Counted from the stretch's first letter, positions 2,287 to 36,995 are shown. The stretch is 64,000 bases of DNA from Methanomassiliicoccaceae archaeon (GCA_016284295.1 JAEEOP010000033.1:7735-71734); one strand, 5' to 3'. Translations and numbers: made by a program. Notes: generated by a model from the sequence alone, not told the origin.

Positions 2287-2290
2287 GTTA

Positions 2291-11143: not shown

Positions 11144-11484
11144 TCCTCATCTCCCCATTTCCATTGCCTGGTCTTGGTCGTTCTCTTCCTGGCGCGCTGT
11201 CTAGGTTTCGTGTTCTCGACGAACGCGGACGGGCGGATGGACTGATCGGGGATCAGTATCTCGAAATTGCCCTGCAGGTCCAAAGCTTCCATAAGTTTCA
11301 ACAGGTTGGAGAGGCCTATGTCATAACCGTTCTCGAACCTCTTGATGGTACTGAGCGACACCATCGATTTCTCGGCAAGATCGGTTTGTGTCATGGGATA
11401 GGATATCCTGTACTGTTTGAACCTTTTCGATAATTCGGATGCGATCTCTGTCGGGTCAGAGGTTGTGGTGATTTTCATTGACAT
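11140..11484 (-). CDS. XRE/HTH antitoxin-like regulator (HipB-like)
   Basis: MTQTDLAEKSMVSLSTIKRFENG HTH; ATGA overlap with the hipA start. Confidence 0.85.
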   Translation of the reverse strand: MSMKITTTSDPTEIASELSKRFKQYRISYPMTQTDLAEKSMVSLSTIKRFENGYDIGLSNLLKLMEALDLQGNFEILIPDQSIRPSAFVENTKPRQRARKRTTKTRQWKWGDEE

Positions 11485-11795: not shown

Positions 11796-13004
11796 ATGCA
11801 ATCCAAAGCTGTTCTAGCAATCGCAGTTGCGGTAGTTGTCATCATAGTGGGCATCGGCGCATTCATGTTCCTGAACAACAACGGCAACAATGATTCCCCG
11901 ACCGGAGAGGTGACCGACGCTCTCGGCCGCACCATCAAGATCCCGTCCGACCTGGACAACGGTATCGTGACGATAGGCAGCACCGGGCCTCTCAGATTCG
12001 CTTCCATCTTCGATGTGTATGACAGGATCATCGAGGTCGACAAGGGCGACATAACCGACAACAAGAACGGAAGGGCGTACTCCTATGCATATCCCTACGA
12101 CAAGCTCGATGTCGAGACCCAATCCCATGCCGACAACAAGCTGGAATCGGCGACGGTGGAATCTATAGGGAAGAAGAATCCCAGCCTGGTCATAACCTCC
12201 GCCGGTGTGTGGAACAACTATGCCGAGAACTTCCAGACCCTGGCCAAGAAGGTCACCGTTATGGTGCTAAAGGATCAGCAGATGCAGTACATGACCGAGG
12301 ACGGCAAGCTCGCTGAATTCATCACGTTCAACATCGAGCTCCTTGGAAAGGTCCTGAAGAAGGAGTCCCGTGCCACGGAGGTCATCGACGGCATCAACGG
12401 AATAATCGCAGACATAGCGTCTCTGAAGGGGACATCGGACAGGAGCATCTACGTCGCAGGCGTCACCATCAGCGGCAGCAACACGCTGAACACGACCTTC
12501 CCCAGATACATCCCCTTCGACCTCACCGGTTCCAAGAACGCATACGCCGGCGGGTCCACCGACAGTAAAGTGGTCCTGAGCCCCGAGGAGGTGGCGAAGA
12601 TGGACATCGACATGATCATCATCGACCCGTCATCCTCGGACAAGGTGAAGGAGCAGGACAGCCAGGCGGTCCTATCGTACCTCTACGGTCTCGATGAGAG
12701 TGAGAGGCCGGACATGTACATCACCGTGCCCATAGTGTGGGACAGTATCAACTACGACTGCGCCCTGGCCAGCGCATTTGTTGTGACGTACCTCAATTAC
12801 CAGGGGTCGCTGACCCTCGAGCAGCTGGAGCAGAAGGTCGTGAACGTTTTCAAGACGTTCTACGGAACCCACGGTGATAATGTCCTGAAGGACATGAAGA
12901 CCTTCTTTGAGGGCAAATCCTCATCGAACGGACAGGAGATGCCGATCTTCCAGGAAGTAGAGGTCGTCAAGAACGGCGACATGTACGCGCTTGCAGCCGC
13001 ATGA
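11796..13004 (+). CDS. ABC transporter substrate-binding protein (iron-chelate/cobalamin, Peripla_BP_2 type)
   Basis: N-terminal membrane anchor, VTDALGRTIKIP, DMIIID; first gene of an SBP-permease-ATPase operon. Confidence 0.85.
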   Translation: MQSKAVLAIAVAVVVIIVGIGAFMFLNNNGNNDSPTGEVTDALGRTIKIPSDLDNGIVTIGSTGPLRFASIFDVYDRIIEVDKGDITDNKNGRAYSYAYPYDKLDVETQSHADNKLESATVESIGKKNPSLVITSAGVWNNYAENFQTLAKKVTVMVLKDQQMQYMTEDGKLAEFITFNIELLGKVLKKESRATEVIDGINGIIADIASLKGTSDRSIYVAGVTISGSNTLNTTFPRYIPFDLTGSKNAYAGGSTDSKVVLSPEEVAKMDIDMIIIDPSSSDKVKEQDSQAVLSYLYGLDESERPDMYITVPIVWDSINYDCALASAFVVTYLNYQGSLTLEQLEQKVVNVFKTFYGTHGDNVLKDMKTFFEGKSSSNGQEMPIFQEVEVVKNGDMYALAAA

Positions 13005-13035
13005 CAACTTCGATAAAGGGATTGATAGGGTGCTG

Positions 13036-14109
13036 ATGGACAGGACGGGGACGGAAGACAGTACCAAGGATGGATATCTGAGGTACGCCCGCAGCAAATG
13101 GCTGTTCCTCATCGGAACGGCCGTTCTGCTGGCGATCCTTTCGGTATACACGATAGGTCTCGGTGCCACCGATCTCTCGTACTTGGACATCCTGAGATAC
13201 CTGTTCTTCCCGGACGATTCGTGGGACAGCACGGTGGTCTGGGATCTCCGCTTCAAGATGATCGTGGCGGCCATATTCGCCGGAGCGGCACTCGGTATCG
13301 CGGGAACCGTGATGCAGAGCATCCTGAGGAACCCGCTGGCCTCCCCGTTCACCTTAGGCCTGTCGAACGCTTCGGCGTTCGGCGCGGCACTGGCCATCCT
13401 CTTCATGGAGGGCGGTACCATCGTGGGGCAGACGGCCGCCTATGCGAACGTCAACAACCCCATCCTTGTCACCGTCATGGCGTTCGCCATGGCCATGATC
13501 GCCACCGGCATCATGCTCCTCCTTGTCAAGATGACCGAATGCACCCCGGAATCCATCGTCTTGGCAGGGTTGGCGATCAGCTCGATATTCTCCGCGGGAC
13601 TGGCGTTCCTGCAATACATGGCAAACGATGTCGCATTGTCCGCCATCGTTTTCTGGCAGTTCGGAAGCCTGAGCAAGGTAAGCTGGTCCAACCTGTACCT
13701 GGTAGGTGCCGTGCTGGTCCTCGTCGCACTGTACTTCATCCACAAGCGCTGGGATTACAACGCACTGGAGTCCGGGGAGGACGTGGCCGCCGGCGTGGGT
13801 GTGAACGTTGAGAGGACCCGCATCATCGGATTGGTCCTGTCCGCGGTTCTGACAGCCGTTGTGGTATCGTTCATGGGCGTGATCGGGTTCATAGGGCTGA
13901 TCGGCCCCCATATAGTCAAGAGGCTGATCGGCAACGACAGCAGGTACGTCCTGATAGGCTCCATGCTGATCGGGGCGCTTGTCCTGCTGTTGGCGTACAT
14001 AATAGGGTCGTACGCATTCTACACGGTCATACCGGTGGGCATAATCACATCGGCGATAGGCGGACCCCTGTTCATCCTCATCCTCATAGGGAGGCGCAGA
14101 AGAAGATGA
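13036..14109 (+). CDS. FecCD/BtuC-family ABC permease
   Basis: LRNPLASPFTLG, GEDVAAGVGVNV (EAA-like), GVIGFIGLIGPHIVKRLIG, IPVGIITSAIGGP. Confidence 0.92.
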   Translation: MDRTGTEDSTKDGYLRYARSKWLFLIGTAVLLAILSVYTIGLGATDLSYLDILRYLFFPDDSWDSTVVWDLRFKMIVAAIFAGAALGIAGTVMQSILRNPLASPFTLGLSNASAFGAALAILFMEGGTIVGQTAAYANVNNPILVTVMAFAMAMIATGIMLLLVKMTECTPESIVLAGLAISSIFSAGLAFLQYMANDVALSAIVFWQFGSLSKVSWSNLYLVGAVLVLVALYFIHKRWDYNALESGEDVAAGVGVNVERTRIIGLVLSAVLTAVVVSFMGVIGFIGLIGPHIVKRLIGNDSRYVLIGSMLIGALVLLLAYIIGSYAFYTVIPVGIITSAIGGPLFILILIGRRRRR

Positions 14110-15062
14110 TCGATGTGAAGGACATCAGGTTCTCGTACGGGAAGAACGAGGTGCTGAAGGGGATATCCTTCCAGTCGGAGCCCAACACTGTGATATCGAT
14201 ACTCGGCCCGAACGGTACCGGTAAGACTACCTTCCTGAGATGCATCACAGGGGCCCGCAGGCCCAGCTCCGGGTAGATCACCGTGGATGGCACGGACATC
14301 TTCGCCTTGTCGGGACGCGAATTGGCGAGGAAGATCGCATACGTTCCCCAAAGCGTCCCCGCATCCAGGATGTCCGTGTTCGACACCATACTGGTCGGCA
14401 GGAGGCCGTACATCGAATGGAGCGCGACCAAGAAGGACTTGGACCGCGTATCAGAGATAATCGACGCCCTGGGGATGTCGCACATCTCCCTGAAGTACAT
14501 GGACGAGATTAGCGGCGGGGAGTTCCAGAAGGCCCAGATCGCCAGAGCGATCGTGCAGGAGCCGTCGGTCCTGATCTTGGACGAACCGACGAACAATCTC
14601 GACATCTCCAACCAGCATCGCACAATGGGGATGATCATGGACATAGTCCGTTCGCGGGGGATGTGCACGATCATGACCATGCACGACATCAACCTGGCGG
14701 TGCATTACTCGGACAGACTCCTGTTCCTTAAGGACGGCAAGGTCGCGGCCTACGGAGGACAGGAGATCGTCACCCGGGAGCTGATAGAGGATGTGTACGG
14801 CGTCGAGGCCGATGTCATCCGCCACAGAGGGGTTCCCATGGTGGTCCCCAGATATTCGATAAAATATGACGATCATGATGATGGAGAACGATACGATGGC
14901 AGAGGACCCGGAGAGGCTTATGCACCCTGTAAGGAACGACCGCGACGCAGTGATCCGCGGAAAGTTCGGCGGATATATGACGGGGTTCGCAAACGCGATG
15001 ATACTGAGGACGTCCTTCCGTTTGGGGCTGTTCGACATTGCCGCCAGCCCGGTATCCGCTAA
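14106..15062 (+). CDS. ABC transporter ATP-binding protein; in-frame TAG at 14274-14276 (probable Pyl)
   Basis: ATG at 14106 overlaps the permease TGA; Walker A GPNGTGKTT precedes RPSSG-TAG-ITVDG, then ISGGEFQK, LILDEPT, TMHDIN in the same frame. Confidence 0.88.
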
Positions 15063-15933
15063 AGAGATCTCCGGAAAGGCAGGTCTGGATGCCGATCTGA
15101 CCGTGATGCTCTGCGACAGCCTGGTGCAGATGGGCCTGCTGGACGGGGTGGAAGGAGGATACGTGGATTCGGACGCTGCATCGGCATATCTCTGCCGCGA
15201 TTCAGACACCTATCAGGGCAACACGCTCAACGGGATGTTCGACAACATGGATGAATGGATGCACTTGGAGGAACGCCTCGTAATGGGTCCAAGATATGTC
15301 CACAGGGAGGAGATGTTCGGGGAGAAGTGGCTCCGGGCGATAGCCGAGTCGTGTCTCGATGGGAGCGTCGGTGCAATCGTCGACGAGATAGATTCCCGCG
15401 TGGATCTGTCAGGATACAGGACCCTTCTCGATCTCGGAGGAGGTCACGGTCTGCACTCGATAGGCCTGGTCCACAGGCATCCGAATCTGGAGGCAACCGT
15501 GTTCGATGTGCCGATGATGTGCCCGATAGCCATGAAGAACTCGGAGAGGTACGGCGTGCCCCTGCGTACGATCGCAGGCGACTTCTATAAGGACGATCTC
15601 GGTGGCCCTTACGATGTGGTGTACTCATCGTTCAATCTTTCCACATCGGACATCAGGATGGCCGACCGTGTCCACGGGGCGGTGGCAGACGGAGGCCTTC
15701 TGATTCTCCGCCGTCATCTGCCAGCGACATCGCAGGACAGCATCCGGAACTTGGAGTGGAGCCTCAGGACCTGGGACGGGAAGGGCAAGAAGAACTACGG
15801 GGGCTCATGGCTACCCACGGCGGAGGCCTACATCGACAAACTGATCGGTCTGGGCATGTCGATGCTCGTGAGGGAACAGATGGATGGATCATCCGAACTG
15901 GTCATCATGACGAAAAGTCCGATACATCCGTAA
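14866..15933 (+). CDS. SAM-dependent methyltransferase (Methyltransf_2 with dimerisation domain)
   Basis: LLDLGGGHG motif I, VFDVP, IAGDFYKD; N-terminal wHTH dimerisation region; start may be 14896. Confidence 0.85.
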   Translation: MTIMMMENDTMAEDPERLMHPVRNDRDAVIRGKFGGYMTGFANAMILRTSFRLGLFDIAASPVSAKEISGKAGLDADLTVMLCDSLVQMGLLDGVEGGYVDSDAASAYLCRDSDTYQGNTLNGMFDNMDEWMHLEERLVMGPRYVHREEMFGEKWLRAIAESCLDGSVGAIVDEIDSRVDLSGYRTLLDLGGGHGLHSIGLVHRHPNLEATVFDVPMMCPIAMKNSERYGVPLRTIAGDFYKDDLGGPYDVVYSSFNLSTSDIRMADRVHGAVADGGLLILRRHLPATSQDSIRNLEWSLRTWDGKGKKNYGGSWLPTAEAYIDKLIGLGMSMLVREQMDGSSELVIMTKSPIHP

Positions 15934-16937: not shown

Positions 16938-18554
16938 TCAGAACGACAGCCTGAGGTCGTCGTACTTGTACACTTTCTGGGGGCAGCTGAACTGGCATCT
17001 GTAGCATGCGGTACCGAGGCAGTTCTTGGTCTTGACCACGATCTTCTTGTCCTCCTGGACGGTGAGCGCGTGCTCGGGGCACTCCTTCTCGCACTTCTTG
17101 CACCCGGTGCAGCCTTCCATGTATCCGGTGAGCTCGGTACCGATGTCGTGGAGGATGTACAGTCCCCTCTCTCCCAGGTCGGGAATGTCACGCTGTACGA
17201 TTCTGTGGACCGTGGGCACGCCTTTCGGCCTGGGGAGCTCCTGGATGCCTGCGATGGCGTTGTTCCTGTTGTACATCTCCATGCTCATGCCCTCGTCACA
17301 CACGGCCAGCTCCTGGGTGTAGATCTGCTCGAAGATCTTGTCGCCTGCGAACATGATGTGGTTGGCCCTGATTCCGTTGGCGATGTCCTGGAGGGTGTCC
17401 AGGAGCTCGGGGTTCCTGAGGATGTCGGTGGCCATGGCCAGCGAGGTGTTACCGTACTGGTAGATGGTGTTGCATGACGGCGGCAGGAGACCGACCTCCC
17501 TTGCCTTCACAGCATCCACATAGGTTCCGGATGCCCCGGCCATGTACATGATGTCGAGGTCGCTGAACTTGATGCCCGCATGCTCCAGGAGGGTGAAGTG
17601 TCCCGCCCTCATCGCTCCGATCGCCTTCATGGCCTCGGAGATGTCATGCGAGTCGATGTAGATGCCGTCCTGCAGGTGGAGCAGTCCGTCGGAGGTCGTG
17701 AGCTTCCCCTTCTTCCAGAGGTGGCAGTCCAGTGCCGCGGCGACGGCGGCGATGACTCCGGTACCGGTGATACCGGTGGCCTTGCCGCTCATCGGCCCTT
17801 CGGGGGTGACGGACTCCAGGCCGAAGTCACATCTGGCCCCGTTCTCGGGGATGATGTCGTCGTTCAGGACCTTGCATATGTATTGGAAATCATATTCGAG
17901 ATCGGATATGGCGCCGGGTCCAGCGAGCATACCGTATTTGATGGACTGCCCTTCCATGGCCGGTCCCGCCGCCGCGGATCCCGTGTAGATGTCGTCCCCT
18001 ATCTTCAGGGCCATCTCGGCGTTGGTACCGTAATCCGTGACGAGGCAGTTCTCCTTCTGCTCGAGGAATCCGCTCTTGTACATCATGGCCAGCGCATCGG
18101 CGCCGATCTCGTGCCTGATCGCCGGGGGAACGCAGAGCTCGCATCCATCCCTGACATTCAGTCCGACATCCACTGCCGAGAAGACCCCGGCATCCCTTTT
18201 CTGCGCCACTATGCCTCTGGCCTTGTGCGCGTTCTCGCCCGCGAAGGCCAGGTCGTCCACCGGGATCCCTTGGAAGAGCGACAGCTGTATCGGGTTACCG
18301 CAGATGCTGACCCTCTCGACCTTGTTCAGGTCCACGCCGAGGGTGGCAATGAGCTTGTTGACGGTGTCGATCAGGATCTTGTGCGCCGTGTCCGTCCCTG
18401 CGTTTATGCAGAACGTTAGATGATCCATGATGTTCGCTCCGGGCAGCGGATGACATTCCGTGACGGAGGTTGATAGTATCTTGCCGTTCGAGAGGTCGAC
18501 GGCGTGCCCTCTTGTACCGCTCGTACCGATATCCAAAGAAATTCCTATACTCAT
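16938..18554 (-). CDS. ramA: Methyltransferase corrinoid protein reductive activase (RamA/RamM, ASKHA ATPase with C-terminal ferredoxin)
   Basis: SLDIGTSG, DYGTNAEMAL, SAAAGPAMEGQ, C-terminal CTGCKKCEKECP and CLGTACYRC; AGGTGG RBS before ATG at 18554. Confidence 0.92.
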   Translation of the reverse strand: MSIGISLDIGTSGTRGHAVDLSNGKILSTSVTECHPLPGANIMDHLTFCINAGTDTAHKILIDTVNKLIATLGVDLNKVERVSICGNPIQLSLFQGIPVDDLAFAGENAHKARGIVAQKRDAGVFSAVDVGLNVRDGCELCVPPAIRHEIGADALAMMYKSGFLEQKENCLVTDYGTNAEMALKIGDDIYTGSAAAGPAMEGQSIKYGMLAGPGAISDLEYDFQYICKVLNDDIIPENGARCDFGLESVTPEGPMSGKATGITGTGVIAAVAAALDCHLWKKGKLTTSDGLLHLQDGIYIDSHDISEAMKAIGAMRAGHFTLLEHAGIKFSDLDIMYMAGASGTYVDAVKAREVGLLPPSCNTIYQYGNTSLAMATDILRNPELLDTLQDIANGIRANHIMFAGDKIFEQIYTQELAVCDEGMSMEMYNRNNAIAGIQELPRPKGVPTVHRIVQRDIPDLGERGLYILHDIGTELTGYMEGCTGCKKCEKECPEHALTVQEDKKIVVKTKNCLGTACYRCQFSCPQKVYKYDDLRLSF

Positions 18555-18602
18555 CGTTACCACCTGACCTATCTGGTCTTTCTTATGTTTTTGTAATAGA
18601 AC

Positions 18603-18820: not shown

Positions 18821-19600
18821 ATGATAGACTACTCTAAAGTAGACTTTTCTAAGATCCTCAAGCGTTACGACGTTGAGGGTCAGAACGAAATGACACCTGA
18901 GTCCGTGGCCAAGGCAATGCTGCCGAAGGACCCCGTCCTGTACAAGGTCGCCGAGTGCGTCCTGTACATGAAGTTCAAGGACGTGGGACCCGCGACCGCC
19001 GAGGCGCTGAAGACGAAAGATGCTCTTGATATCATCAACAACGGACTCGTCGTCGGAATGGAGTGTGTCGCGAAACTGTACGCAGAGCACATCTACTACC
19101 TGCCCGAGATCATGATGGCCGCAAAGACTATGGAGATCGGAATCGCACTCGCAGAGAAGCAGATCCCCGGTGGAAGGACGACAAAGGGAACCGTCGTCAT
19201 GCATGCCGCCGAAGGAGACCCCCACGACATCGGTAAGAACATCGCCGCCGTCATGATGAGGTCTTCCGGATACACCGTCGTCGACATGGGAAAGGATGTC
19301 GCAGTGGACGATGTCGTCGCCAAGGTGAAGGAGATCAAGCCCTTCATGGTGACCGGAACCGCGCTCATGACGACCACCATGACAGCATTCCCCCGCGCCG
19401 CAGCGAAGCTCGTCGCAGCCGGAATCAACATCCCGTTCATGGCAGCCGGAGGAGCAGTCAACAGGGACTTCTCGGAGTCCTTCGACCTCGGAATCTATTC
19501 CGAGAAGGCGCCTCAGACCCCGCCCATTGCGGACAAGATCCTTGAGGGATACGACTGGAGAAAGATCAGGGAAGAGTGGGACCACATCGTAGGAGAGTGA
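18821..19600 (+). CDS. mtaC: Methanol corrinoid protein
   Basis: EGDPHDIGKNI B12-binding motif (DxHxxG), GTALMTTT, AAGGAV; AGGAGG RBS. Confidence 0.93.
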   Translation: MIDYSKVDFSKILKRYDVEGQNEMTPESVAKAMLPKDPVLYKVAECVLYMKFKDVGPATAEALKTKDALDIINNGLVVGMECVAKLYAEHIYYLPEIMMAAKTMEIGIALAEKQIPGGRTTKGTVVMHAAEGDPHDIGKNIAAVMMRSSGYTVVDMGKDVAVDDVVAKVKEIKPFMVTGTALMTTTMTAFPRAAAKLVAAGINIPFMAAGGAVNRDFSESFDLGIYSEKAPQTPPIADKILEGYDWRKIREEWDHIVGE

Positions 19601-19605
19601 TTGTT

Positions 19606-20997
19606 ATGGCAAAGTACACAAAGATGGCATACGGCAGTGCGGAAGAGATGGTATTCGGACACGCGAAGGAGCCCGTCTCTTACGGTTTCGGAATCAAGGT
19701 CGGAGCAGGCAGGGTCATCCCCGAGCTGAACTACGGACCCAGGCCCGGATCCGAGGCGACACCCGAGAAACTCAGGAAGGAGTACGTCGACTACATCTCC
19801 AAGGATGTCCTCAACAGATGCGTCACCCTCGGATTCCCCGACGTCCAGCTGGAGACCGAGTGGATCTCCCAGATGGGAGACCCCAAGATGGCCACACCCG
19901 TGGTCGAGGGCCAGAAGGCAATCTGCGAGAAGTACTACGAGGAGTACGGACTGAACTGCGCCGTGAGGCAGACAATCCCCGACCAGCGTGAGGCGGAAGA
20001 GGGATACAGGCCCGGAATGGGCGGAAAGCACAGCTACCCCGAGCACCTGTTCCAGTGTGCTGAGGTCGCCTGTGAGAACGGAGCGGATGTCCTCTCGTGC
20101 GAGACCCTCGGAGGAAAGGAGCTCGGAGACTACGCGACCACGAACGGAGACATCGTCGCATTCCTGTTCGGAATCGGATACCTCGGTTCCATCGACATGG
20201 AGTACGTCTGGAAGCAGTTCGTCGATATCGCCAAGAAGAACAAGGTCATCGCCGGAGGAGACACCAACTGTTCCGGAGCCAACACCTCGATGTTCATGGC
20301 CGGCGGAATGCTGGACCAGGATGTCCAGAGGACCTACTCCGCGGTCACCCGTGCGATCTCCGCCGCAAGGACCCTTGTGGCATGGGAGCAGGGTGCATCC
20401 GGACCCGACAAGGACTGCGGTTACGAGGGACCCATCTGTAAGGCTATCGCAGGAAAGCCCTGCGCACAGGAGGGAAAGAACTGTCAGTGCGCCCACGCCG
20501 ATCTTCAGGGTAACCTGATGGCACAGGTCTGCGACCTCTGGTCCAACGAGTCCATCGAGTACCACCCCGAGTTCGGAGGAACCTCCGTCCAGTGCTGGAT
20601 GGGAAGCCTCGGATACGAGGTGGCCCTGATGAACACCGCCATCCAGACCGGCAAGCAGAAGGACCTCAGAGACCTCTACATGATCACCGACCGTGAGAGG
20701 GGACCCGAGGGACACATCCTCGCATACGACAACGCATATAAGATCGGAGAGGCTATCGTCTCTGAGGGCAACAACTACTACCTCAGGGCCAAGGCCGCCG
20801 GACTCACCGCCGCGAAGCTCATCAAGGACCACAACGACTCCAAGGAGCTCCAGCTGACCAGGAAGCAGAGGGAAGTCCTCGACTCTATCATCAAGGACCT
20901 CGAAGCTCTTCCGGATGATGAGGACAAGTTCTTCGAGTACTGCTGCAAGAAGTACGCGGACGTGCCCAACTTCAACCTGAAGAACTACGGTCTTTGA
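19606..20997 (+). CDS. mtaB: Methanol:corrinoid methyltransferase
   Basis: MAYGSAEEMVFGHAKEPVSYG, ENGADVLSCETLGGKE, GDTNCSGANT, GPDKDCGYEG, WSNESIEYHPEFGG. Confidence 0.95.
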   Translation: MAKYTKMAYGSAEEMVFGHAKEPVSYGFGIKVGAGRVIPELNYGPRPGSEATPEKLRKEYVDYISKDVLNRCVTLGFPDVQLETEWISQMGDPKMATPVVEGQKAICEKYYEEYGLNCAVRQTIPDQREAEEGYRPGMGGKHSYPEHLFQCAEVACENGADVLSCETLGGKELGDYATTNGDIVAFLFGIGYLGSIDMEYVWKQFVDIAKKNKVIAGGDTNCSGANTSMFMAGGMLDQDVQRTYSAVTRAISAARTLVAWEQGASGPDKDCGYEGPICKAIAGKPCAQEGKNCQCAHADLQGNLMAQVCDLWSNESIEYHPEFGGTSVQCWMGSLGYEVALMNTAIQTGKQKDLRDLYMITDRERGPEGHILAYDNAYKIGEAIVSEGNNYYLRAKAAGLTAAKLIKDHNDSKELQLTRKQREVLDSIIKDLEALPDDEDKFFEYCCKKYADVPNFNLKNYGL

Positions 20998-21066: not shown

Positions 21067-21564
21067 ATGTCTGAATTCAAGCCATTGGATCCAACGGCAT
21101 GCGGATTGTTCCTGGTGGCAGTGGTGTCATTCCCTCTCGCGATCGTCAATCTGATCGATGGGCAGGTCGGACCTTCGAGCGATTTCTTCACGATAATAGG
21201 CGCACTGATCCTTGTCGTGGCGCTCCTGGCCTACAGAGCGGAGAGCAATTTCGGATTCACGGTGTTCACATTGGTCGGGGCGGCCGTGCTGCTGACCGGA
21301 CTGGGGATCGGACCCTGGGAGGACATAGCGTTCACGCTGACCTTCCTGCTGGCCATCATATGGTCCTTGAATGTGAAGGCTCCGAAAGCATTGACGATAA
21401 TCTGTTTTACCACCGCCTTGGTCTTCCTGACCGTAGGTCTCTCCGGCATAGTCGGAGGGGACTATTGGCATTGGTTGATAGGAATCGCGGCGCTGTTGAA
21501 CTTCATCTTCAACATCTATCTGTCGTTCGCACTTGCAATGGACGGTAAGATCAAGGTCTTCTGA
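21067..21564 (+). CDS. GPR1/FUN34/YaaH (SatP-like) small membrane transporter
   Basis: PLDPTACGLF resembles the NPAPLGL signature; ~6 TM helices; strong GGAGGT RBS. Confidence 0.6.
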   Translation: MSEFKPLDPTACGLFLVAVVSFPLAIVNLIDGQVGPSSDFFTIIGALILVVALLAYRAESNFGFTVFTLVGAAVLLTGLGIGPWEDIAFTLTFLLAIIWSLNVKAPKALTIICFTTALVFLTVGLSGIVGGDYWHWLIGIAALLNFIFNIYLSFALAMDGKIKVF

Positions 21565-21579
21565 TCCCGTCCCTCAAAC

Positions 21580-21598
21580 AGGTCCCTTCATGGGACCT
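21580..21598 (+). terminator. Hairpin after SatP-like gene
   Basis: AGGTCCC-TTCAT-GGGACCT followed by a pyrimidine tract. Confidence 0.5.
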
Positions 21599-21737
21599 CC
21601 TTCTCCTTGTTCAGAAGGGGCCGTCGGCATGCGGCCCCGTCATCCACGGCGATGGTCGATGATTTTTCCGATAATTCGACATACGTCGTACATGCTGGCA
21701 ACAAGCCAATAAATAGAGTCCGCTTTACGGTTCTCAG

Positions 21738-24353
21738 ATGACATCATCAAATCCACGTCCAGTGGTCCCTCTGGATTCTTCCGAACTCGATATCGGTCTG
21801 GTCGGAGGCAAGGGGATCAACATAGCCAAGATGATCTCGAGCGGATTCAGCGTGCCACCGGCGCTCTCTGTCACCGTGGACGCATACGACATGTTCCTGG
21901 ACATAACCGGTCTCAGGGGCAGGATCGCCGAGATACTGGCTAGGACGGATTTCGATGACGATGCGGATCTCAACGCATCATCCGACAGGATACGTTCGCT
22001 CTTCACCGAGGTGCCCCTTCCGGAGGAGGAGATCTCAGACCTCAAGAAGAACTTCTTCAACCTCGAAGGCGAGTACTTCGCGGTCCGCTCTTCCGCCGTG
22101 GCGGAGGACCTGGCCGATGCCAGCTTCGCAGGTCAGCAGGACACCTATCTGAACGTGAGGAAGCATGACATCATCTCCAGGGTCCTGGCCTGCTGGGCGT
22201 CGTATTGGAACGCAAGGGCGATGAAATACAGGCATGATGCATCGAAGGACCATCTCTCGCAGGGTATGGCAGTCGTCGTACAGAAGATGGTCAAATCCGA
22301 CATCAGCGGGGTCATGTTCACATCCGATCCGGTCACCGGTGAGGAGCATGTCATAATAGAGGCGTCATGGGGTCTCGGAGAATCGATAGTGTCCGGGCTC
22401 GTCACCCCCGACAGCTACAAGGTCTCGTACGACGGGAAGGTCCTGTCCGCCGAGGTCCACAACAAGGAGATCGGGTTCTTCCTCGTCGACGGGGAGAACA
22501 GGCAGGTCCCCATCGATCCCGACAAGGTCTCGGTGCGCTGTGCGGACGATACTGTGCTGAAAGCGATCGCAGCCGAGGGACTCAAGCTCAGGGACCACTT
22601 CGGATGCCCCCAGGACATCGAATGGGCCGTCGAGGCCGGCAAGGTGTACATACTCCAGTCGAGGGCGATCACGACCCTGCCGGACATGTCCGAGAAGGAC
22701 GACATCCTCTGGTCCAGGGGATACGGCGACGAGTACTGGGCGGATGCCACCACACCGATGTTCTATACGGTCATGGGAAAGCTCCTGACCGATTACGTGA
22801 ACCACGAGGGAGCGCACATGATGGGCTACAAGGATCTGGAGTCCGGACCGCTCACGAAGCTCCACAAGTCGAGGGTGTACTTCTCCGCCGTCGTGTTGGA
22901 GAGGATCTTCGCCCACTATCCCAAGTTCATACGTTCGAAGGAACTGCTCGAGTACTTCCCCCGCAGCGAGCAGGAGAGGATCTCGAAGTACCCCAACGAT
23001 TTCCTCGGAATGATCAAGTCGCAGCTCTGTCTGCTCATCCGCGACAGGGACGGGATGATCTGGAGGACGGACAAGGTCTACAGGAAGTGGGCAGAGGGAT
23101 TCCTCAAGCTGTGCGACGAGTTCGATGCCACCGATTTGACCAGAGTATCCGACAAGGAGCTGGCCGAGTGGTACGGCAGGATTCGCGTGGGATCCACCAA
23201 GCACTACCAGCTGATCCGCTACGGTATGGTGTCGCATTCGATCATGACCAATCTGCTGGTCAAGAACTGGTCCATCAAATGGTTCAAGGATGACGGTTCC
23301 GTCTATGCCGGACTGATGTCCGGGCTGGAGGACAACAAGACCGTCGAGACCAACAAGGGATTCTCCGACCTGGGCGTGGCGCTCAGGGCCGACGAGGATG
23401 TCAGGAAGAAGGCGGAGTCCATGGATGCCGAGGAGTTCGTCGAGTGGCTCCAGACATCCGACGTCCCCTTCAAGGATGTCTATAACGGATTCATAAAGGA
23501 GTTCGGGCACAGGTCCGGTACAAGAGAATTGAACGCCCTCAGGTGGGCAGAGGATCCCGATTACGTGATGTCCATGGCCTTGCAGATGTGCGATTCCGGT
23601 GTAGATCTCAGGAAGGAGTTCGAGAACGGTATCCAGCGCAGGAAGGACACGGAGGAGATGGTTCGCAAGGAGCTGGGTTTCTTCAAGAGAGCCATACTGT
23701 TCAAGGTGCTGCAGTATGCGCGCACATACCTCATATTCAGGGAGAACCAGAGGTTCTACCTCGACCATATGATGTACAGGAACAGGCTGATCTTCCTCGA
23801 GCAGGGAAGGAGGATGAAGGACATGGGCCTGATCGATGACAGGGAGGACATATTCTTCCTGGAGGACACCGAGGCCCTGGCGATCCTCAACGGAGGGGAC
23901 GCGTCCGATGCGAGGGCGGTCATCGCCCCCAGGAAGGCGGAGTTCATGAAGTACCGCGACAGGCTCCCGCCGAAGTTCCTGCTGAACGGGGTCGACTTCG
24001 ACGACGACCCCATCTCCCAGGGGGACACCCTGGTGGGTGCGGCGTCCAGCCCTGGAACGTACAGGGGAAGGGTCCGCGTCATCAGCGACGTCAGGGATCT
24101 GGGCCAGGTCGAGAAGGGCGAGATACTTGTCACGAGCAACACCGATCCCGGGTGGACGGTGGTGTTCTCGAAGCTGGGCGGGCTCATCACCGAGACAGGA
24201 GGAATCTTATGTCACGGTGCCGTCATATCCCGCGAGTACAGGATACCTGCGGTCACAGCGGTCAAATCAGCGACCTCCGTGCTGCACACAGGGGACTTGG
24301 TCTCCGTGGACGGCAGCAAGGGAGAGGTAACGATACTGGAGGAAAAGGAATGA
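21738..24353 (+). CDS. PEP-synthase/rifampicin-phosphotransferase-like enzyme (PPDK_N + central substrate domain + His swivel domain)
   Basis: VGGKG, AVRSSAVAEDLADASFAGQQDT, PQDIEWA, ILQSRAIT; C-terminal TDPGWT and GGILCHGAVISREYRIPAV. Confidence 0.88.
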   Translation: MTSSNPRPVVPLDSSELDIGLVGGKGINIAKMISSGFSVPPALSVTVDAYDMFLDITGLRGRIAEILARTDFDDDADLNASSDRIRSLFTEVPLPEEEISDLKKNFFNLEGEYFAVRSSAVAEDLADASFAGQQDTYLNVRKHDIISRVLACWASYWNARAMKYRHDASKDHLSQGMAVVVQKMVKSDISGVMFTSDPVTGEEHVIIEASWGLGESIVSGLVTPDSYKVSYDGKVLSAEVHNKEIGFFLVDGENRQVPIDPDKVSVRCADDTVLKAIAAEGLKLRDHFGCPQDIEWAVEAGKVYILQSRAITTLPDMSEKDDILWSRGYGDEYWADATTPMFYTVMGKLLTDYVNHEGAHMMGYKDLESGPLTKLHKSRVYFSAVVLERIFAHYPKFIRSKELLEYFPRSEQERISKYPNDFLGMIKSQLCLLIRDRDGMIWRTDKVYRKWAEGFLKLCDEFDATDLTRVSDKELAEWYGRIRVGSTKHYQLIRYGMVSHSIMTNLLVKNWSIKWFKDDGSVYAGLMSGLEDNKTVETNKGFSDLGVALRADEDVRKKAESMDAEEFVEWLQTSDVPFKDVYNGFIKEFGHRSGTRELNALRWAEDPDYVMSMALQMCDSGVDLRKEFENGIQRRKDTEEMVRKELGFFKRAILFKVLQYARTYLIFRENQRFYLDHMMYRNRLIFLEQGRRMKDMGLIDDREDIFFLEDTEALAILNGGDASDARAVIAPRKAEFMKYRDRLPPKFLLNGVDFDDDPISQGDTLVGAASSPGTYRGRVRVISDVRDLGQVEKGEILVTSNTDPGWTVVFSKLGGLITETGGILCHGAVISREYRIPAVTAVKSATSVLHTGDLVSVDGSKGEVTILEEKE

Positions 24354-25219
24354 GCGGAGAATTGGATTGGAACGAGAGCTATTACTTCAACTTCTTCGAT
24401 GCGAAGCAGGCCCTCACGGCCTTCATGCGCATCGGCAACAAGCCTAACAGGAACGAGAAATCCGTGTTCCTATTCGTGATGAACAAGGACGGCGTGTTCG
24501 GCATCAGGAACACCGAGCCCTGCGACGAGAACAAGACCCTCTGCTCCGGACTCAGGTTCGAGAACAAGGGCGATGTCTGGAAGATCACCTACAACGGCCC
24601 CCTGTTCGACATGTCCAAGGAGCCTGTGCCCATCATGTCCTCGCTGGACATCGACTGGAGACCCGTCAACCCCGAGATGGACTACCACGACTGCGTGGAT
24701 GCCGCCGGGGAGGCCCTGTCCGCGAAGACCGCCTCGGAGCACTTCGAGCAGTTCGGAGTCGCCACCGGAAAGGTCGTCGTCGGTGATTCCTCATTCCAGG
24801 TCGAAGCGACGGGAGAGAGGGACAAGAGCGAGGGCGTCCGCGACTGGGGATCCCCCAAGATGTGGCTCTGGCTCAACTCCGTCTACGGCGCGGATCTCGG
24901 ATGGAACGCCACCAAGCTGTCCACGCAGATGGGGGATGTCGATGCTGGATTCGTCGGGACCAAGGACTGCAACGATCCCGTCGTCAAGATCGATATCGAC
25001 CTGGACTACGACGGTGCTATACCCAAGTCCTACAGGATGACCATGCATGGCAAGAGCGGCAAGTCCTACGATGTGGAGGCCAAGATCCTCAAGTACGCCC
25101 AGCTTCCGATGCAGGGCAGCAAGGACATGATGCTCATTGAGACCATCTCGCAGACCGTCATGGACGGCCGCACCGGTTTCGGAATCGCCGAGCTCCTGGT
25201 GCCCTCCAAGAGGGAGTGA
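24350..25219 (+). CDS. Uncharacterised beta-rich protein (DUF7064/7065- or AttH/CrtC-like), translationally coupled to the phosphotransferase
   Basis: ATGA overlap at 24350-24353; WNESYYFNFFD..RIGNKPN, HFEQFG..G....G, GERDKSEGVRDW motifs. Confidence 0.7.
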   Translation: MSGELDWNESYYFNFFDAKQALTAFMRIGNKPNRNEKSVFLFVMNKDGVFGIRNTEPCDENKTLCSGLRFENKGDVWKITYNGPLFDMSKEPVPIMSSLDIDWRPVNPEMDYHDCVDAAGEALSAKTASEHFEQFGVATGKVVVGDSSFQVEATGERDKSEGVRDWGSPKMWLWLNSVYGADLGWNATKLSTQMGDVDAGFVGTKDCNDPVVKIDIDLDYDGAIPKSYRMTMHGKSGKSYDVEAKILKYAQLPMQGSKDMMLIETISQTVMDGRTGFGIAELLVPSKRE

Positions 25220-25352
25220 AACACATTTGGGGCCCACGCCCCGTTTCATCCATCCACATGGTATCCTCCTGGATACTGGCTATGTTTTATCCTTGAAGAT
25301 TCGGACCGCATCAGTCTTATAATGTCGGATGCCGATTCGAATACTGATCCAA

Positions 25353-25700
25353 ATGACCGATTGCAAAGTATGCGTGGATGCGGGTGTCTGCAAGATGAAG
25401 ACCATCATCACGGCCACTACCAATGACATGGGCCTGGTCGATCTCCATATCAAGAGCGATTGCCCGAACATCTTGAAGATGTCGTGGAGGATGGAGCCTG
25501 TCAGCCCGTATGCGGAGGTCGAGTCCGAGTTCTACAAGTCCGAGGTATACAAGTGGGCCCAGGAGACCCCTATACCCCATACGGCATGCCCTGTGCCTTC
25601 AGCGATCATCAAAGCAATAGAGTACGCCGGGGATCTAGGCCTGAAGCGCGACGTGTCCATCAGGTTCATTGACGACGATTCAGAGGCCGGGATGGACTGA
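25353..25700 (+). CDS. DUF6951-family small Cys-containing protein
   Basis: VDAGVCKMKTIITA, SDCPNI, HTACPVPSAIIKAIE, RDVSIRF. Confidence 0.7.
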   Translation: MTDCKVCVDAGVCKMKTIITATTNDMGLVDLHIKSDCPNILKMSWRMEPVSPYAEVESEFYKSEVYKWAQETPIPHTACPVPSAIIKAIEYAGDLGLKRDVSIRFIDDDSEAGMD

Positions 25701-26102
25701 TCAGATCGGCAGCTTGGTGCAGTTAGGCACCACTTTGTAGTTGTACTCGCAGAAGTAGACCTCTATATTCTGCCCCTTGTACTTCTCGAAGACCAGATGC
25801 CAGTTCTGGACGGGTATGTTGCCGCATATGACGGCGTTCACCTTCTTCCCCTCCGATAGCCTGTCGCCGATGAAGGCCTCCAACTCCCTGGGGAAGGTTA
25901 TCCTGTTGTCGGCCAGGAACTCGCGGTCCACCTTCAGGATTATGGAGTCAGGCTCCTGCCTTGCGATTTCGTCCAGGACTATCTGGATGAGAGTCTCCAT
26001 CCCTTCGGTCTTTATTCCGGATATGGCGGTGGGCTCCTTGGTGGCAACGAATCCTGCCACCAGCGGTCTTGGGTCGGTCTCGGGCGGTGTGGCGAAAACC
26101 AT
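25701..26102 (-). CDS. Hypothetical protein, tandem paralogue B
   Basis: 133 aa; collinear similarity to 26112..26513 (PPETDPRP, RLSEGK, G.IPV..W, CTKL). Confidence 0.75.
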   Translation of the reverse strand: MVFATPPETDPRPLVAGFVATKEPTAISGIKTEGMETLIQIVLDEIARQEPDSIILKVDREFLADNRITFPRELEAFIGDRLSEGKKVNAVICGNIPVQNWHLVFEKYKGQNIEVYFCEYNYKVVPNCTKLPI

Positions 26103-26111
26103 GGTATCACA

Positions 26112-26513
26112 TCATATGGTGAGCTTGGTGCAAAGCGGCACCTGACGGCAGGCCGCGGCGCAGTAGAAGACCTGCAGGTCCCTTCCTTTGAACTTCTGCA
26201 GCTCCAGGTTCCATCCGGAGACGGGAATGTCCCCTGCGATGATGAGGTTCAGCCTCTTCCCTTCGGACAGCCTCTTCTCAATGTAACCGGAGAAGTCCCT
26301 TGCGAACGTGATGTCCTCGTCGGACATCAGGTCCCTGTCCATTATGACTATGTTGGATCCGGGCTGCTGTCTGCTCAGCTCGTCGACGACGATTTGCATC
26401 AGGGCTTCCGTGCCTTCGGCCACAAGGCCTGCAAGGGCCTTGGCGTCATCATTGGATATGAATTCGGATACCTTCGGACGCGGGTCCGACTCAGGGGGAC
26501 AGGAGTTGACCAT
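26112..26513 (-). CDS. Hypothetical protein, tandem paralogue A
   Basis: 133 aa; same length and shared motifs as 25701..26102. Confidence 0.75.
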   Translation of the reverse strand: MVNSCPPESDPRPKVSEFISNDDAKALAGLVAEGTEALMQIVVDELSRQQPGSNIVIMDRDLMSDEDITFARDFSGYIEKRLSEGKRLNLIIAGDIPVSGWNLELQKFKGRDLQVFYCAAACRQVPLCTKLTI

Positions 26514-35089: not shown

Positions 35090-35890
35090 TCATTGGGTGA
35101 TGCTGACCCTCTTGGGCAGCACGTACAGGTCCCCTTCGGAATCAATACCGACGGAGGCCTCGACGCCGTACACGTCCTTGATCAGTTCCGGGGTGATGAC
35201 CTTCTTCGGCTCTCCGACGGCCACCAGCTCCCCTTTCTTCATGATCACGCACAGGTCGCAGTACCTCGCCATCAGGGAGATGTCGTGCTCCGCGACAAGG
35301 ATCGTCATGTCCTTCTTGACCATGGCCTTCAGGTACTCCATGACCTCGAGCTTGAACTTCATGTCAAGGTGGGACGTGGGCTCGTCGACCAGCATCAACC
35401 TGGGCTCCTGCACGTAGGCCTTGGCGATCAGCACACGCTGCTGCTCTCCGGAGGAGAGCATGTTGAGGGCGCGGTCCTGAAGATGATGGACACCGAACTT
35501 CTCCAGCGTCTCCTCCACGAGGGTCTCGTCCTCGTCGGTCTCCCACCACATGTTCTGCAGATAGGGATATCTTCCGAGCATGACGGTCTCGAACACGGTC
35601 AGTCCGAAGGATGCGGTCATCTCCGCCGGCACGTTGGACACCAGCTTGGCGACCTCCGTGGGGGTCTTCGGTATGACCGATTCCCCGTCGATGAGGATGT
35701 CCCCGCTGGTGAGCATGTGCATCTTGTTGATGCATCTCATCATCGTGGTCTTCCCGCAGCCGTTGGGCCCGATGAGGCCTACGAGCTTTCCCGATGGGAT
35801 CGAGAAGCTTACATCCCTGTCGGCATGGTAGCCGTTTTCGTATATCTTATCCAAATGACGGATCTCTAATAACGGAACCTCATCATCCAT
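35090..35890 (-). CDS. ABC transporter ATP-binding protein (FecE/BtuD-like)
   Basis: GPNGCGKTT, LSSGEQQR, LVDEPTSHLD, AEHD. Confidence 0.92.
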   Translation of the reverse strand: MDDEVPLLEIRHLDKIYENGYHADRDVSFSIPSGKLVGLIGPNGCGKTTMMRCINKMHMLTSGDILIDGESVIPKTPTEVAKLVSNVPAEMTASFGLTVFETVMLGRYPYLQNMWWETDEDETLVEETLEKFGVHHLQDRALNMLSSGEQQRVLIAKAYVQEPRLMLVDEPTSHLDMKFKLEVMEYLKAMVKKDMTILVAEHDISLMARYCDLCVIMKKGELVAVGEPKKVITPELIKDVYGVEASVGIDSEGDLYVLPKRVSITQ

Positions 35891-36995
35891 TGTACATCTT
35901 CCCCCTTATGAACAGAAGGTAGGCGAACACAGGCACGCCTATCAAAGTAGTAATGGCTCCCACAGGGAGCTCGTTTCCAGGAATTATCATTCTCGCCGCC
36001 AGGTCTGCGGCCATCATCAGCACGCCTCCCAGGGCTATCGATCCCGGGAGCACCAGGCGGTGGTCGCCTCCGAACAGCATACGGCACAGGTGGGGCACCA
36101 CCAGTCCGACGAAACCGATGATACCGCAGAACGCGACGCAGAAGGCCGTCATTATGGACGCCAGGGTAAGGATCATGGCGTTGAACCTCTTCACGTTCAG
36201 GCCCATCTGCCTCGCCTGTCCCTCTCCCAGAAGCACCAGGTTCATCTCCTTGGCGTACCTGAAGATGAACAGGCTGATTATGATCACAGGGATCAGGATG
36301 AAGATCGCCTTCTCCCAGGTGATGTTAGAGAAGGATCCGAACAGCCACAGCATGACGTTGGAGACCTTGTTCCCCGAGAACACGATCATTATTGTCTGGG
36401 CGGCACCGAACACCAGTCCGATGACGACTCCCGACAGGACGTAGGCGTTGGTCGTTCCTCCGGCGCGGAGGGCCAGGGCCATGGTGAGCAGGAACGCGAC
36501 CAGTCCTCCCACGATCGCCGCCACGGCGATCAGGTAGATCGAGTATGCGGACATCAGTCCGAAGAACGTGAAGTCGAATGCGATCACGGCTATCGCCAGG
36601 GTGCCCGCTCCCGAGGACACTCCCATGATGTACGGGTCCACGAGCGGGTTCCTGATGACGGCCTGATAGGCCGCACCGGCTACGGACAGTCCCAATCCGA
36701 CGGCCAGGGCCGCTATCGCCCTGGGCGTGCGCGAGCTGTAGATCAGGATCTCGTCCGGGCTCATGACCGAGCCGTCCTTCCCTATGGCCGAGAACAGGCT
36801 CGTCAGCGCCGTTATCGGATCCACGATCTTCGTGGGTCCGATGCATAGCATCGCCAGGAACATTATCACGGAGAGGACGGTCCCCAGGAGCACTATCATC
36901 TTCATCCTGTGCCTCTTCCTCTGCATGTGGGTATCGCCGCCTCCGTCCAGGAAGCGCTTGGCGGATGCCCTGAAGCTCCTTTCCTCGTCAGACAT
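35883..36995 (-). CDS. FecCD/BtuC-family permease
   Basis: IRNPLVDPYIMGVSSGA, GEGQARQMG, GFVGLVVPHLCR, ELPVGAIT. Confidence 0.92.
   Translation of the reverse strand: MSDEERSFRASAKRFLDGGGDTHMQRKRHRMKMIVLLGTVLSVIMFLAMLCIGPTKIVDPITALTSLFSAIGKDGSVMSPDEILIYSSRTPRAIAALAVGLGLSVAGAAYQAVIRNPLVDPYIMGVSSGAGTLAIAVIAFDFTFFGLMSAYSIYLIAVAAIVGGLVAFLLTMALALRAGGTTNAYVLSGVVIGLVFGAAQTIMIVFSGNKVSNVMLWLFGSFSNITWEKAIFILIPVIIISLFIFRYAKEMNLVLLGEGQARQMGLNVKRFNAMILTLASIMTAFCVAFCGIIGFVGLVVPHLCRMLFGGDHRLVLPGSIALGGVLMMAADLAARMIIPGNELPVGAITTLIGVPVFAYLLFIRGKMYNG

Follow-up and report, generated by a model that had tools for sequence, protein, structure and literature searches.

Positions 21738 to 25219 of a 64,000-nucleotide (nt) stretch of DNA from a Methanomassiliicoccaceae archaeon (GCA_016284295.1 JAEEOP010000033.1:7735-71734; the whole stretch is termed the window herein) carry two overlapping genes, which encode an 871-amino-acid (aa) dikinase resembling rifampicin phosphotransferase (RPH) and a 289-aa partner resembling 25-phosphosteroid lyase (25-PSL). 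On balance, we lean toward the view that the pair is an AMP-forming, ATP-dependent two-enzyme module of a dehydratase-like kind, which would phosphorylate an alcohol and then eliminate the phosphate. Homology and conserved residues support each of the two predicted steps, and gene linkage and fusion support their coupling. We infer three further points: the product of the dikinase is what the partner acts on, the partner catalyzes an elimination, and the starting alcohol is tertiary or allylic (isoprenoid-like). The features of the pair are given below (all on the plus strand; positions are counted from the first letter of the window).

21708..21715, +: AATAAATA, possible archaeal TATA box, 23 to 30 nt 5' of the dikinase ATG (from the sequence)
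21738..24353, +: gene 1, putative RPH-type small-molecule dikinase gene, 871 aa (open reading frame [ORF], Pfam, profile and fold matches; labeled phosphoenolpyruvate [PEP] synthase/PpsA in databases)
21798..22697, +: ATP-grasp domain, aa 21 to 320, with K25, R117, and T136 (Pfam PPDK_N; RPH alignment)
22698..24017, +: central, mostly helical, predicted substrate-binding domain, aa ~321 to 760 (RPH alignment; Rph_4th on orthologs)
24111..24323, +: C-terminal swivelling phosphohistidine domain, aa 792 to 862 (Pfam PEP-utilizers)
24213-24215, +: codon of the predicted catalytic His826 in GGILCHGAVISREY (aligned to RPH H825; invariant in 25 orthologs)
24350..24353, +: ATGA start/stop overlap joining gene 1 and gene 2 (from the sequence)
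24350..25219, +: gene 2, 25-phosphosteroid-lyase-like gene, 289 aa (DUF7065, aa 6 to 164, and DUF7064, aa 166 to 282; double beta-barrel with an AttH-like fold)
24812..24850, +: signature motif GERDKSEGVRDWG, aa 155 to 167 (R157, D158, S160, and R164 conserved family-wide)
25229..25246, +: short GC hairpin, GGGGC-CCAC-GCCCC, then GTTT, 10 nt past the gene 2 stop (from the sequence)

Both genes are real: they are long, conserved ORFs with strong family matches, which are not due to chance. The first-pass annotation of this DNA, made by a model from the sequence alone, had described an 871-aa dikinase coupled by an ATGA overlap to a 289-aa protein, and both reading frames were borne out, the first at 21738..24353. 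In the mechanical ORF list, the frame of gene 2 is longer and has a GTG start (24152..25219). All 25 aligned homologs of its product begin at the Met of the ATG at 24350, which confirms both the length of 289 aa and the overlap of 4 nt. If the AATAAATA element is an archaeal TATA box, as its sequence and position make possible, the dikinase transcript would be leaderless or nearly so; the hairpin past gene 2 could conceivably mark the transcript end.

The Pfam scan of the dikinase found PPDK_N (PF01326; aa 21 to 320, E 2e-88) and PEP-utilizers (PF00391; aa 792 to 862, E 9e-23) but not the PEP-utilizers_C TIM barrel (PF02896), and precomputed Pfam matches place PF27448 "Rph_4th" in the center of its orthologs. 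The domain order of ATP-grasp, central domain, and C-terminal His domain, with no PEP barrel, had been proposed at first pass and is confirmed by these matches. In the NCBIfam scan, the dikinase remained far below the cut-off of every matching model (the PRK06241 "PEP synthase" subfamilies, RPH, RedH, PigC, and PEP synthase). The RPH models NF041857 and NF000283 gave 400 bits (cut-off 999) and 292 bits (cut-off 1700), respectively; the PEP synthase model TIGR01418 gave 370 bits (cut-off 740), and the prodiginine ligase models PigC and RedH gave 392 versus 1350 and 366 versus 1300 bits. The RedH and PRK06241.2-2 profiles cover the whole length of the dikinase, and RedH and PigC are among its best full-length NCBIfam matches. 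A profile built from 25 orthologs had Listeria RPH as its best match in the Protein Data Bank (PDB; E 2e-136), in two blocks (aa 19 to 316 and aa 511 to 874). For the AlphaFold2 model of the dikinase, Listeria RPH was also the sole full-length fold match (E 7e-40, 921 columns, 24% identity), and PEP synthase, HpeI, and PPDK covered the ATP-grasp part only (HpeI with a TM score of 0.78 on the target). The earlier assignment to the RPH type rather than to PEP synthase agrees with the missing barrel, the NCBIfam scores, and this fold match.

In the alignment, K25, R117, and T136 of the dikinase correspond to K22, R117, and T136 of Listeria RPH (RPH-Lm), and R668-E669, R672, and H826 correspond to R666-E667, K670, and H825 of RPH; all of these dikinase residues are invariant in the 25 orthologs, down to 51% identity. 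Mutagenesis of RPH-Lm assigned K22, R117, and T136 to the first phosphotransfer and R666-E667 and K670 to the second, with H825 as the phosphate carrier (PMC4844700). The second half of the central domain aligns with the rifampin-binding domain of RPH, including R668-E669 and R672. No alignment to RPH was obtained for aa ~317 to 510, which have invariant motifs of their own (W325, R327, YGDEYWAD at 329 to 336, and NHEGA at 355 to 359); the RPH counterpart of this segment is part of the subdomains that hold rifampin. From these sequence comparisons, we conclude that the dikinase should be an active RPH-type phosphotransferase with a substrate other than that of RPH. Rifamycin resistance makes no sense as its role, because archaeal RNA polymerase is naturally insensitive to rifamycins.

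The Pfam scan of the partner gave DUF7065 (41.3 bits; cut-off 27) followed by DUF7064 (43.3 bits; cut-off 24.7), both above the gathering score, and the NCBIfam model Rv3169_fam matched with an E value of 4e-11. The AlphaFold2 model of the partner (predicted local distance difference test [pLDDT], 86.8; predicted TM score [pTM], 0.84) contains 17 strands and one helix, in keeping with the beta-rich protein foreseen from the sequence. A single-sequence search of the PDB gave a marginal match to 25-PSL (E 0.13); when a profile of 26 partner homologs was used, 25-PSL matched with an E value of 6.8e-10 and nothing else fell below 0.5. Foldseek placed three 25-PSL entries (9fzn, 9g2i, and 9g4c, released in January 2026) first, at E values of ~2e-14 and query TM scores of 0.73 to 0.76. 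The next matches, at E values of ~5e-8, were a putative AttH, the decalin-forming pericyclases (Diels-Alderases) CghA/Fsa2/Phm7, and kievitone hydratase. Structure prediction, one of the checks suggested by the first-pass annotation, led for the single proteins to RPH and 25-PSL as the top fold matches.

The motifs YYFN, PN, W103, FxQxG, GxRDxSxGVR, and IET...GYGxxEF are common to the partner and 25-PSL. The 25-PSL sequences of 9fzn and 9g4c differ at a single position, an Asp-to-Asn change in GSRDRSWGVR, and the Asn variant is the crystal with phosphate and the alkene product. The Asp that was changed in 9g4c aligns with D158 of the partner, which lies within the invariant GERDxSxGVRDWG of the archaeal orthologs and within the consensus GxGxRDHSWGxRDW of 51 family representatives (21 to 37% identity), in which RDxSWGxR is the signature common to the family. 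His131 is also invariant in the partner family, which is rich in invariant charged residues. From the existence of the Asp-to-Asn variant structure, we infer that the Asp of 25-PSL and, by analogy, D158 may have a catalytic role. Sequence and model together identify the partner as a homolog of 25-PSL, and we predict that it is a phosphoester C-O lyase.

The two genes are strictly linked. A survey based on the partner covered 80 loci from one-genome-per-species contigs, and the dikinase was found directly upstream on the same strand in 79 of them; in the last one, the contig breaks off 114 nt upstream of the partner gene. A survey based on the dikinase yielded 79 metagenomic loci. In 68 of these, the contig reaches the 3' end of the dikinase gene and continues for at least 400 nt, and in all 68 the partner follows on the same strand, at dikinase identities as low as 43%. 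Two family-specific dikinase motifs, YGDEYWA and KHY[QR]LIRY, sufficed to draw only pair-bearing loci from metagenomes. Dikinase and partner identities to their window counterparts are closely correlated across loci (r = 0.98; n = 65), and the gap between the genes, determined for 65 genomic loci, is ≤10 nt in 23, 10 to 300 nt in 37, and larger in 5. Conservation of the gene pair, which had been named as a check at first pass, is seen in both surveys, and the two proteins are fused in some lineages. A conserved third gene was not found when 814 flanking ORFs were clustered, the commonest cluster other than those of the pair itself being present in 9 loci only.

In three Methanobacterium loci with large gaps, an unrelated gene on the opposite strand, which is not conserved, sits between the dikinase and lyase genes. 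The insert in L038 (3103-5028, -) encodes a complete alkyl sulfatase (MBL, Alkyl_sulf_dimr, and Alkyl_sulf_C), and those in L040 (5646-6632, -) and L062 (5657-6643, -) encode a 328-aa protein resembling NAD-dependent epimerases. An O-ester of an alcohol is likewise the target of the alkyl sulfatase, which may or may not be due to chance.

Three fusions were found among the best 150 of 1136 lyase-family representatives (a profile search of 1.84 billion cluster representatives, with clusters at 50% identity, gave 1136 family members at E ≤ 1e-3). P0301 (1178 aa) joins PPDK_N, the swivel-His PEP-utilizers domain, DUF7065, and DUF7064 through a short, natural-looking linker, with 43% and 40% identity to the window proteins. 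P0318 and P0342 consist of an ATP-grasp domain, an Ala/Pro/Gly-rich linker, and DUF7065/DUF7064 lyase-like domains and have no His domain. For any single fusion representative, an assembly artifact is conceivable. A further candidate, P0213 (1180 aa), was rejected as a fusion because its C-terminal extension does not resemble the partner.

The pair occurs in Methanomethylophilaceae and other Methanomassiliicoccales, in Methanobacterium/Methanobacteriaceae, in Methanocella, in a metagenome-assembled genome (MAG) of the Methanomicrobiales, in a "Thermococci" MAG, and on unassigned archaeal contigs. Its cultured hosts are the Methanobacterium species M. petrolearium, M. subterraneum, M. ferruginis, M. 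oryzae, and M. aggregans, and the nearest relatives of both proteins come from Candidatus Methanomethylophilaceae and other Methanomassiliicoccales found in metagenomes of ruminant and other guts. In one homolog search, which 2965 proteins passed, there were archaeal orthologs only among the matches listed; distant members came from the representative search and from tblastn against plasmids. A bacterial origin of some loci was considered and rejected: bins named "Bacteroides/Prevotella/Lachnospiraceae" hold archaeal contigs, with TiaS, Orc1/Cdc6, and A-type ATPase genes. Human-gut MAG bins named Bacteroides, Prevotella, Lachnospiraceae, Bifidobacteriaceae, Dialister, and others (L018 to L025, L030 to L032, and L084) with such archaeal contigs represent public binning errors. 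When the Methanomassiliicoccales loci L018 to L032 were compared with L026 to L029 and L076, DNA alignment was limited to the ~3.5-kb pair (77 to 83% identity), and the flanks could not be aligned. This pattern would be expected if the pair is under strong purifying selection in genomes that have been rearranged, or if both genes have moved laterally together.

Bacterial relatives of the partner also occur with kinases. Among five plasmid-borne lyase-family members that were inspected, four have the gene of an APH-family kinase next to the lyase-family gene or within its operon. In Pseudonocardia (pBCI1-2), an APH-family kinase gene (PF01636, E 9e-44) stops 14 nt before the lyase-like gene; on a Mycobacterium paragordonae plasmid, a gene for a "phosphotransferase family protein" begins at the end of the lyase-like gene; on a Sulfitobacter plasmid, the two lie within one gene string; and on a Variovorax plasmid, they are 5 kb apart. 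On the Rhodococcus plasmid, no APH-type kinase was found within 4 kb of the lyase-like gene. From the locus numbering and the literature on Rv3168, we take Rv3168 to adjoin Rv3169 in M. tuberculosis. Rv3168 has a structure of the APH fold (Rv3168 literature), and the relatives of 25-hydroxysteroid kinase (25-HSK) are "phosphotransferase family" proteins of Actinobacteria (PMC8449060). That the lyase family recurs with a kinase of either of two unrelated folds speaks more strongly than any other finding for a phosphorylated intermediate as the substrate of its members.

In all five plasmid loci, the lyase-like gene lies among genes of the acyl-CoA/beta-oxidation type. On the plasmids of L164, L166, L167, and L168, DUF7064/DUF7065 genes are found amid genes for enoyl-CoA hydratases, acyl-CoA dehydrogenases, CoA ligases, MaoC dehydratases, and lipid-transfer/thiolase proteins, and one of these clusters has a gene for HMG-CoA lyase. 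This suggests that the substrates of the bacterial proteins are branched acyl-CoA intermediates of the isoprenoid or sterol side-chain type.

For the archaeal pair, the following sequence of events is proposed. ATP would bind to the N-terminal ATP-grasp domain, and His826 would take the beta-phosphate (ATP → AMP + inorganic phosphate [Pi] + enzyme-His~P). The swivel domain would then move to the central domain, where R668-E669 and R672 would position the phosphoryl group for transfer to the substrate hydroxyl; the substrate would be small, probably hydrophobic, and held by the family-specific half of the central domain. In the second step, the partner would bind the phosphoester in the cavity of its beta-barrel, with R157 and R164 predicted to hold the phosphate and D158 to serve as acid/base, and expulsion of the phosphate would leave an alkene or, failing that, another product derived from a carbocation. 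The net reaction would be R-OH + ATP → alkene + AMP + 2 Pi. The idea, voiced at first pass, that a hydroxylated substrate is phosphorylated and then processed gains support from the homology of the partner to 25-PSL in both sequence and model.

The use of a dikinase would make thermodynamic sense. In the ADP-forming reaction of 25-HSK, the tertiary phosphoester has a group-transfer potential close to that of ATP, and the reaction is freely reversible, with a Keq of 0.34 (PMC8449060). Since cleavage of two anhydride bonds would pull the activation forward and make it irreversible, a dikinase would solve this problem of reversibility.

As for the substrate, every fold relative of the partner takes hydrophobic compounds, and two of these enzymes, 25-PSL and kievitone hydratase, act on tertiary centers of isoprenoid-type groups; a tertiary or allylic isoprenoid-like alcohol is hence the most economical guess by analogy. 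A more specific version, in which methanogen lineages use the pair on an isoprenoid or cofactor alcohol of their own, is put forward tentatively and may well not hold. The reaction would then be of a hitherto undescribed type, a dikinase-driven C-O elimination (AMP-forming, at the cost of two anhydride bonds); an example would be the dehydration, for repair or remodelling, of tertiary hydroxyls on ether-lipid chains or on a lipid-soluble cofactor. Three other substrates are left open or considered unlikely: a coenzyme B precursor, given that some methanogen lineages were not seen to have the pair and that elimination would destroy the product; mevalonate-type polar tertiary alcohols, given that the barrel family handles hydrophobic ligands; and hydroxyarchaeol, which is typical of lineages other than the pair-bearing ones.

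Several observations weigh against a phosphorylation-elimination module. The AlphaFold2 model of the dikinase has a moderate mean pLDDT of 76, with low values just in the family-specific central part (aa 314 to 387). The partner shares only ~18% identity with 25-PSL and is about 70 aa shorter (289 versus 362 aa), and 25-PSL fragments score below the gathering thresholds of the Pfam families DUF7065 and DUF7064. Because 25-PSL is this distant, the archaeal partner is, as judged from sequence, not a steroid enzyme, and 25-PSL is the best available model for its function; neither the window nor the sampled loci with their flanks showed steroid catabolic genes. The reaction of the partner could also differ from that of 25-PSL, as the fold superfamily includes hydratases and pericyclases. 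The neighbors give no hint of the substrate, and Pfam-labeled contexts differ completely between lineages. Finally, in the one characterized system, the kinase (25-HSK) is a 40-kDa ADP-forming enzyme with no lyase gene nearby (PMC8449060), whereas the genes of the pair overlap and are inseparable, so that a coupling of dikinase and lyase is without biochemical precedent.

Some of these points are shared by readings in which the partner does something else with the phosphoester, such as cyclization, allylic transposition, substitution by water with inversion (epimerization), or transfer to a nucleophile. Such an outcome, which would follow the logic of PigC/RedH, where phosphorylation makes an oxygen a leaving group for condensation, is unlikely in our view but deserves to be kept in mind. 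In the fold superfamily, Diels-Alderases and hydratases convert hydrophobic substrates by pericyclic or carbocation-like chemistry, the best full-length NCBIfam matches of the dikinase include RedH and PigC, and the identity of the partner to 25-PSL is low. However, no other solved protein comes nearly as close to the partner as 25-PSL, whether by sequence or by structure, the Asp exchanged in the 25-PSL variant is invariant in the partner family, and no gene that would supply a second substrate is conserved nearby. Inactivation of a xenobiotic or antibiotic, in which the dikinase would phosphorylate a toxic gut or sediment compound (a terpenoid alcohol, a phenolic, or a macrocycle) and the partner would bind, deliver, or destroy it, strikes us as rather improbable. 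The nearest characterized dikinases, RPH and HpeHI, inactivate or scavenge exogenous compounds, the genomic context is variable and the spread over methanogen orders patchy, DNA conservation of ~80% is confined to the 3.5-kb pair between otherwise unalignable contigs, and expression is low and looks constitutive. Yet rifamycins are an unlikely target for an organism with an insensitive RNA polymerase, as is generally known of archaea, the dikinase reaches 400 bits against the RPH equivalog cut-off of 999, and the rifampin-contacting half of the central domain is unaligned; moreover, phosphorylation alone inactivates in the known cases, which leaves an obligate lyase partner unexplained.

The remaining readings assign a different role to one of the proteins. 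If the partner were a phospho-acceptor or a carrier of hydrophobic ligands, the dikinase would be a protein kinase or part of a phosphorelay, or the partner would present a lipid to it. Parts of the RPH central domain do resemble the phosphotransferase system proteins HPr and EIIA (PMC4844700), the partner has the invariant His131, lipocalin-like barrels are often carriers, and some orthologs bear the database name "phosphoenolpyruvate protein kinase." We nevertheless judge this very unlikely, as the dense invariant charged residues of the partner resemble an active site and are shared with a known lyase, and its family pairs with APH small-molecule kinases in bacteria. Haloarchaeal PspR, an archaeal RPH-like repressor without rifampin-phosphorylating activity, provides a model for the dikinase-like protein as a DNA-binding regulator; the catalytic residues of both half-reactions are all invariant, however, the protein is joined to an enzyme-like partner by fusion or by translational coupling, and no target promoter or neighbor is conserved, so that we give this little credence. 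The public databases favor a genuine PEP synthase: orthologs are annotated as PEP synthase/PpsA, pyruvate, water dikinase, "phosphoenolpyruvate protein kinase," rifampicin phosphotransferase, or hypothetical protein, and the N-terminal domain resembles that of PEP synthase. But with the defining pyruvate/PEP domain PF02896 absent, the dikinase cannot be a PEP synthase, and this reading is hardly credible. The His domain is C-terminal instead of central, TIGR01418 reaches half of its cut-off score (370 versus 740 bits), PEP synthase structures match the ATP-grasp part only, and one pair-bearing genome also encodes a canonical PpsA with PF02896, 5 kb from the pair (L083). 

The genes on either side of the pair are as follows.

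16938-18563, -: RACo/RamA-type corrinoid activase, upstream of the pair
18821-19600: mtaC, upstream of the pair
19576-20997: mtaB, upstream of the pair
21067-21564, +: 165-aa ORF between mtaB and the pair, no family match
25329-25700, +: DUF6951 gene, downstream of the pair
25701-26102 and 26112-26513, -: two tandem paralogous 133-aa ORFs, no family match

The first-pass annotation had described the pair as a module downstream of mtaCB. The position is correct, but a functional tie to mtaCB was rejected: mtaCB lies upstream in 3 of the 80 loci, all of them close relatives, and the RNA depths differ more than 100-fold. In the faecal metatranscriptome X17, the contig depth was 1600 to 3400 for mtaCB, ~400 for the 165-aa ORF, and 3 to 10 for the pair, contig depth being a crude measure and metatranscriptome libraries being able to contain DNA. 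The 165-aa ORF and a 173-nt spacer separate mtaB from the pair. RNA contigs of the upstream unit end at 21525 and those of the pair start at ~21739 to 21762, and no contig in X17 bridges 21526 to 21761; single RNA contigs span the junction between the dikinase and partner genes in three runs.

The 165-aa ORF (21067-21564) is kept in the same place in L001, L003, and L074 (56 to 60% identity). An X17 RNA contig (20920-21525) carries this ORF and overlaps the end of mtaB, at about one-fifth of the mtaB depth, and the ORF may have an accessory role in the methanol methyltransferase operon. Downstream of the pair, the region with the DUF6951 gene and the 133-aa ORFs (25329-26513) had an RNA depth of ~34 in X17; L001 and L003 have a single copy of the 133-aa ORF after the DUF6951 gene.

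Farther away in the window, a HipA-like kinase (Couple_hipA and HipA_C; 9860-11484, -) is preceded by an overlapping gene for a 114-aa HTH_3 protein, which together constitute a toxin-antitoxin pair of the hipBA type. Two FecCD/Peripla_BP_2 ATP-binding cassette (ABC) uptake clusters are located at 35883-41374 (-) and 11796-14109 (+), with a 986-aa protein in which a PQQ-like beta-propeller is fused to a FecCD permease encoded at 36988-39948; the clusters, which lie near the corrinoid-dependent mta genes, may import corrinoids or iron chelates. An O-methyltransferase gene (14866-15933, +), whose product has a plant-type dimerization domain (PF08100 and PF00891), adjoins the corrinoid activase and mta genes.

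Neither an RPH-type dikinase obligately coupled or fused to a 25-PSL-like protein, nor the restriction of such a pair to methanogenic and other archaea without pathway context, nor a general kinase association of the DUF7064/DUF7065 family was found in literature searches or in the source annotations of the homologs. The early description of an "undescribed pathway" holds for the dikinase version and the archaeal substrate but not for the principle, for which 25-HSK/25-PSL is a precedent. A testable function can now be proposed for the two-DUF family, that of a phosphoester lyase always working with a kinase of the APH or dikinase type. If this is true, ATP-dependent dehydration, for which a single bacterial steroid pathway and NAD(P)HX repair are the examples to date, would extend to archaea and to dikinase chemistry; should the substrate be endogenous, the pair would be the first archaeal ATP-dependent dehydratase, and DUF7064/DUF7065 would be defined as kinase-dependent phospho-lyases. 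The labels PpsA/PEP synthase and rifampicin phosphotransferase are a widespread annotation error, and dikinases mislabeled in this way can give false calls of gluconeogenesis or resistance in reconstructions of gut and rumen methanogens. With cultured Methanobacterium hosts, the module is open to experimental study.

Among known systems, 25-HSK/25-PSL of Sterolibacterium denitrificans offers the closest logic: the kinase phosphorylates a tertiary C25 alcohol, and the lyase eliminates the phosphate to give a delta-24 alkene (PMC7411048, PMC8449060, and PMC11061730). The pair is predicted to follow the same two steps of alcohol phosphorylation and phosphate elimination. The steroid kinase, however, is a ~40-kDa ADP-forming phosphotransferase, whereas that of the pair is an unrelated 871-aa dikinase of the AMP-forming type, and the hosts of the pair are methanogenic archaea whose sampled flanks contain no steroid-degradation genes. 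RPH (RPH-Lm; PDB 5fbs/5hv1) shares with the dikinase the three-domain order and all catalytic residues and is its best full-length fold match; it differs in sequence (24% identity), in working alone without a partner, and in the segment that corresponds to the unaligned aa ~317 to 510.

Other members of the wider family use related chemistry. HpeHI (PDB 9goj) is a two-component dikinase for hydroxyphenylethanones, with its ATP-grasp part on one protein and its His/substrate part on another (PMC12167813), and this split architecture fits the ATP-grasp-lyase fusions P0318 and P0342. In both HpeHI and phenylphosphate synthase, ATP-grasp/swivel-His chemistry activates a hydroxyl for a difficult follow-up step, as proposed here; in contrast to the pair, their substrates are phenols, which cannot undergo elimination, and the follow-up enzyme is a carboxylase, while the window dikinase is a single chain. 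PigC/RedH/HapC belong to the same RPH-like family and likewise use phosphorylation to make an oxygen a leaving group, but the group departs within the same enzyme during condensation and not in a separate lyase, and prodiginine genes are not present with the pair. The uncharacterized bacterial pairs of APH kinase and DUF7065/DUF7064 protein differ in their kinase fold (PF01636) and in their location in acyl-CoA/beta-oxidation-like clusters, and they have in common with the archaeal pair that a gene of the same lyase family adjoins a kinase gene.

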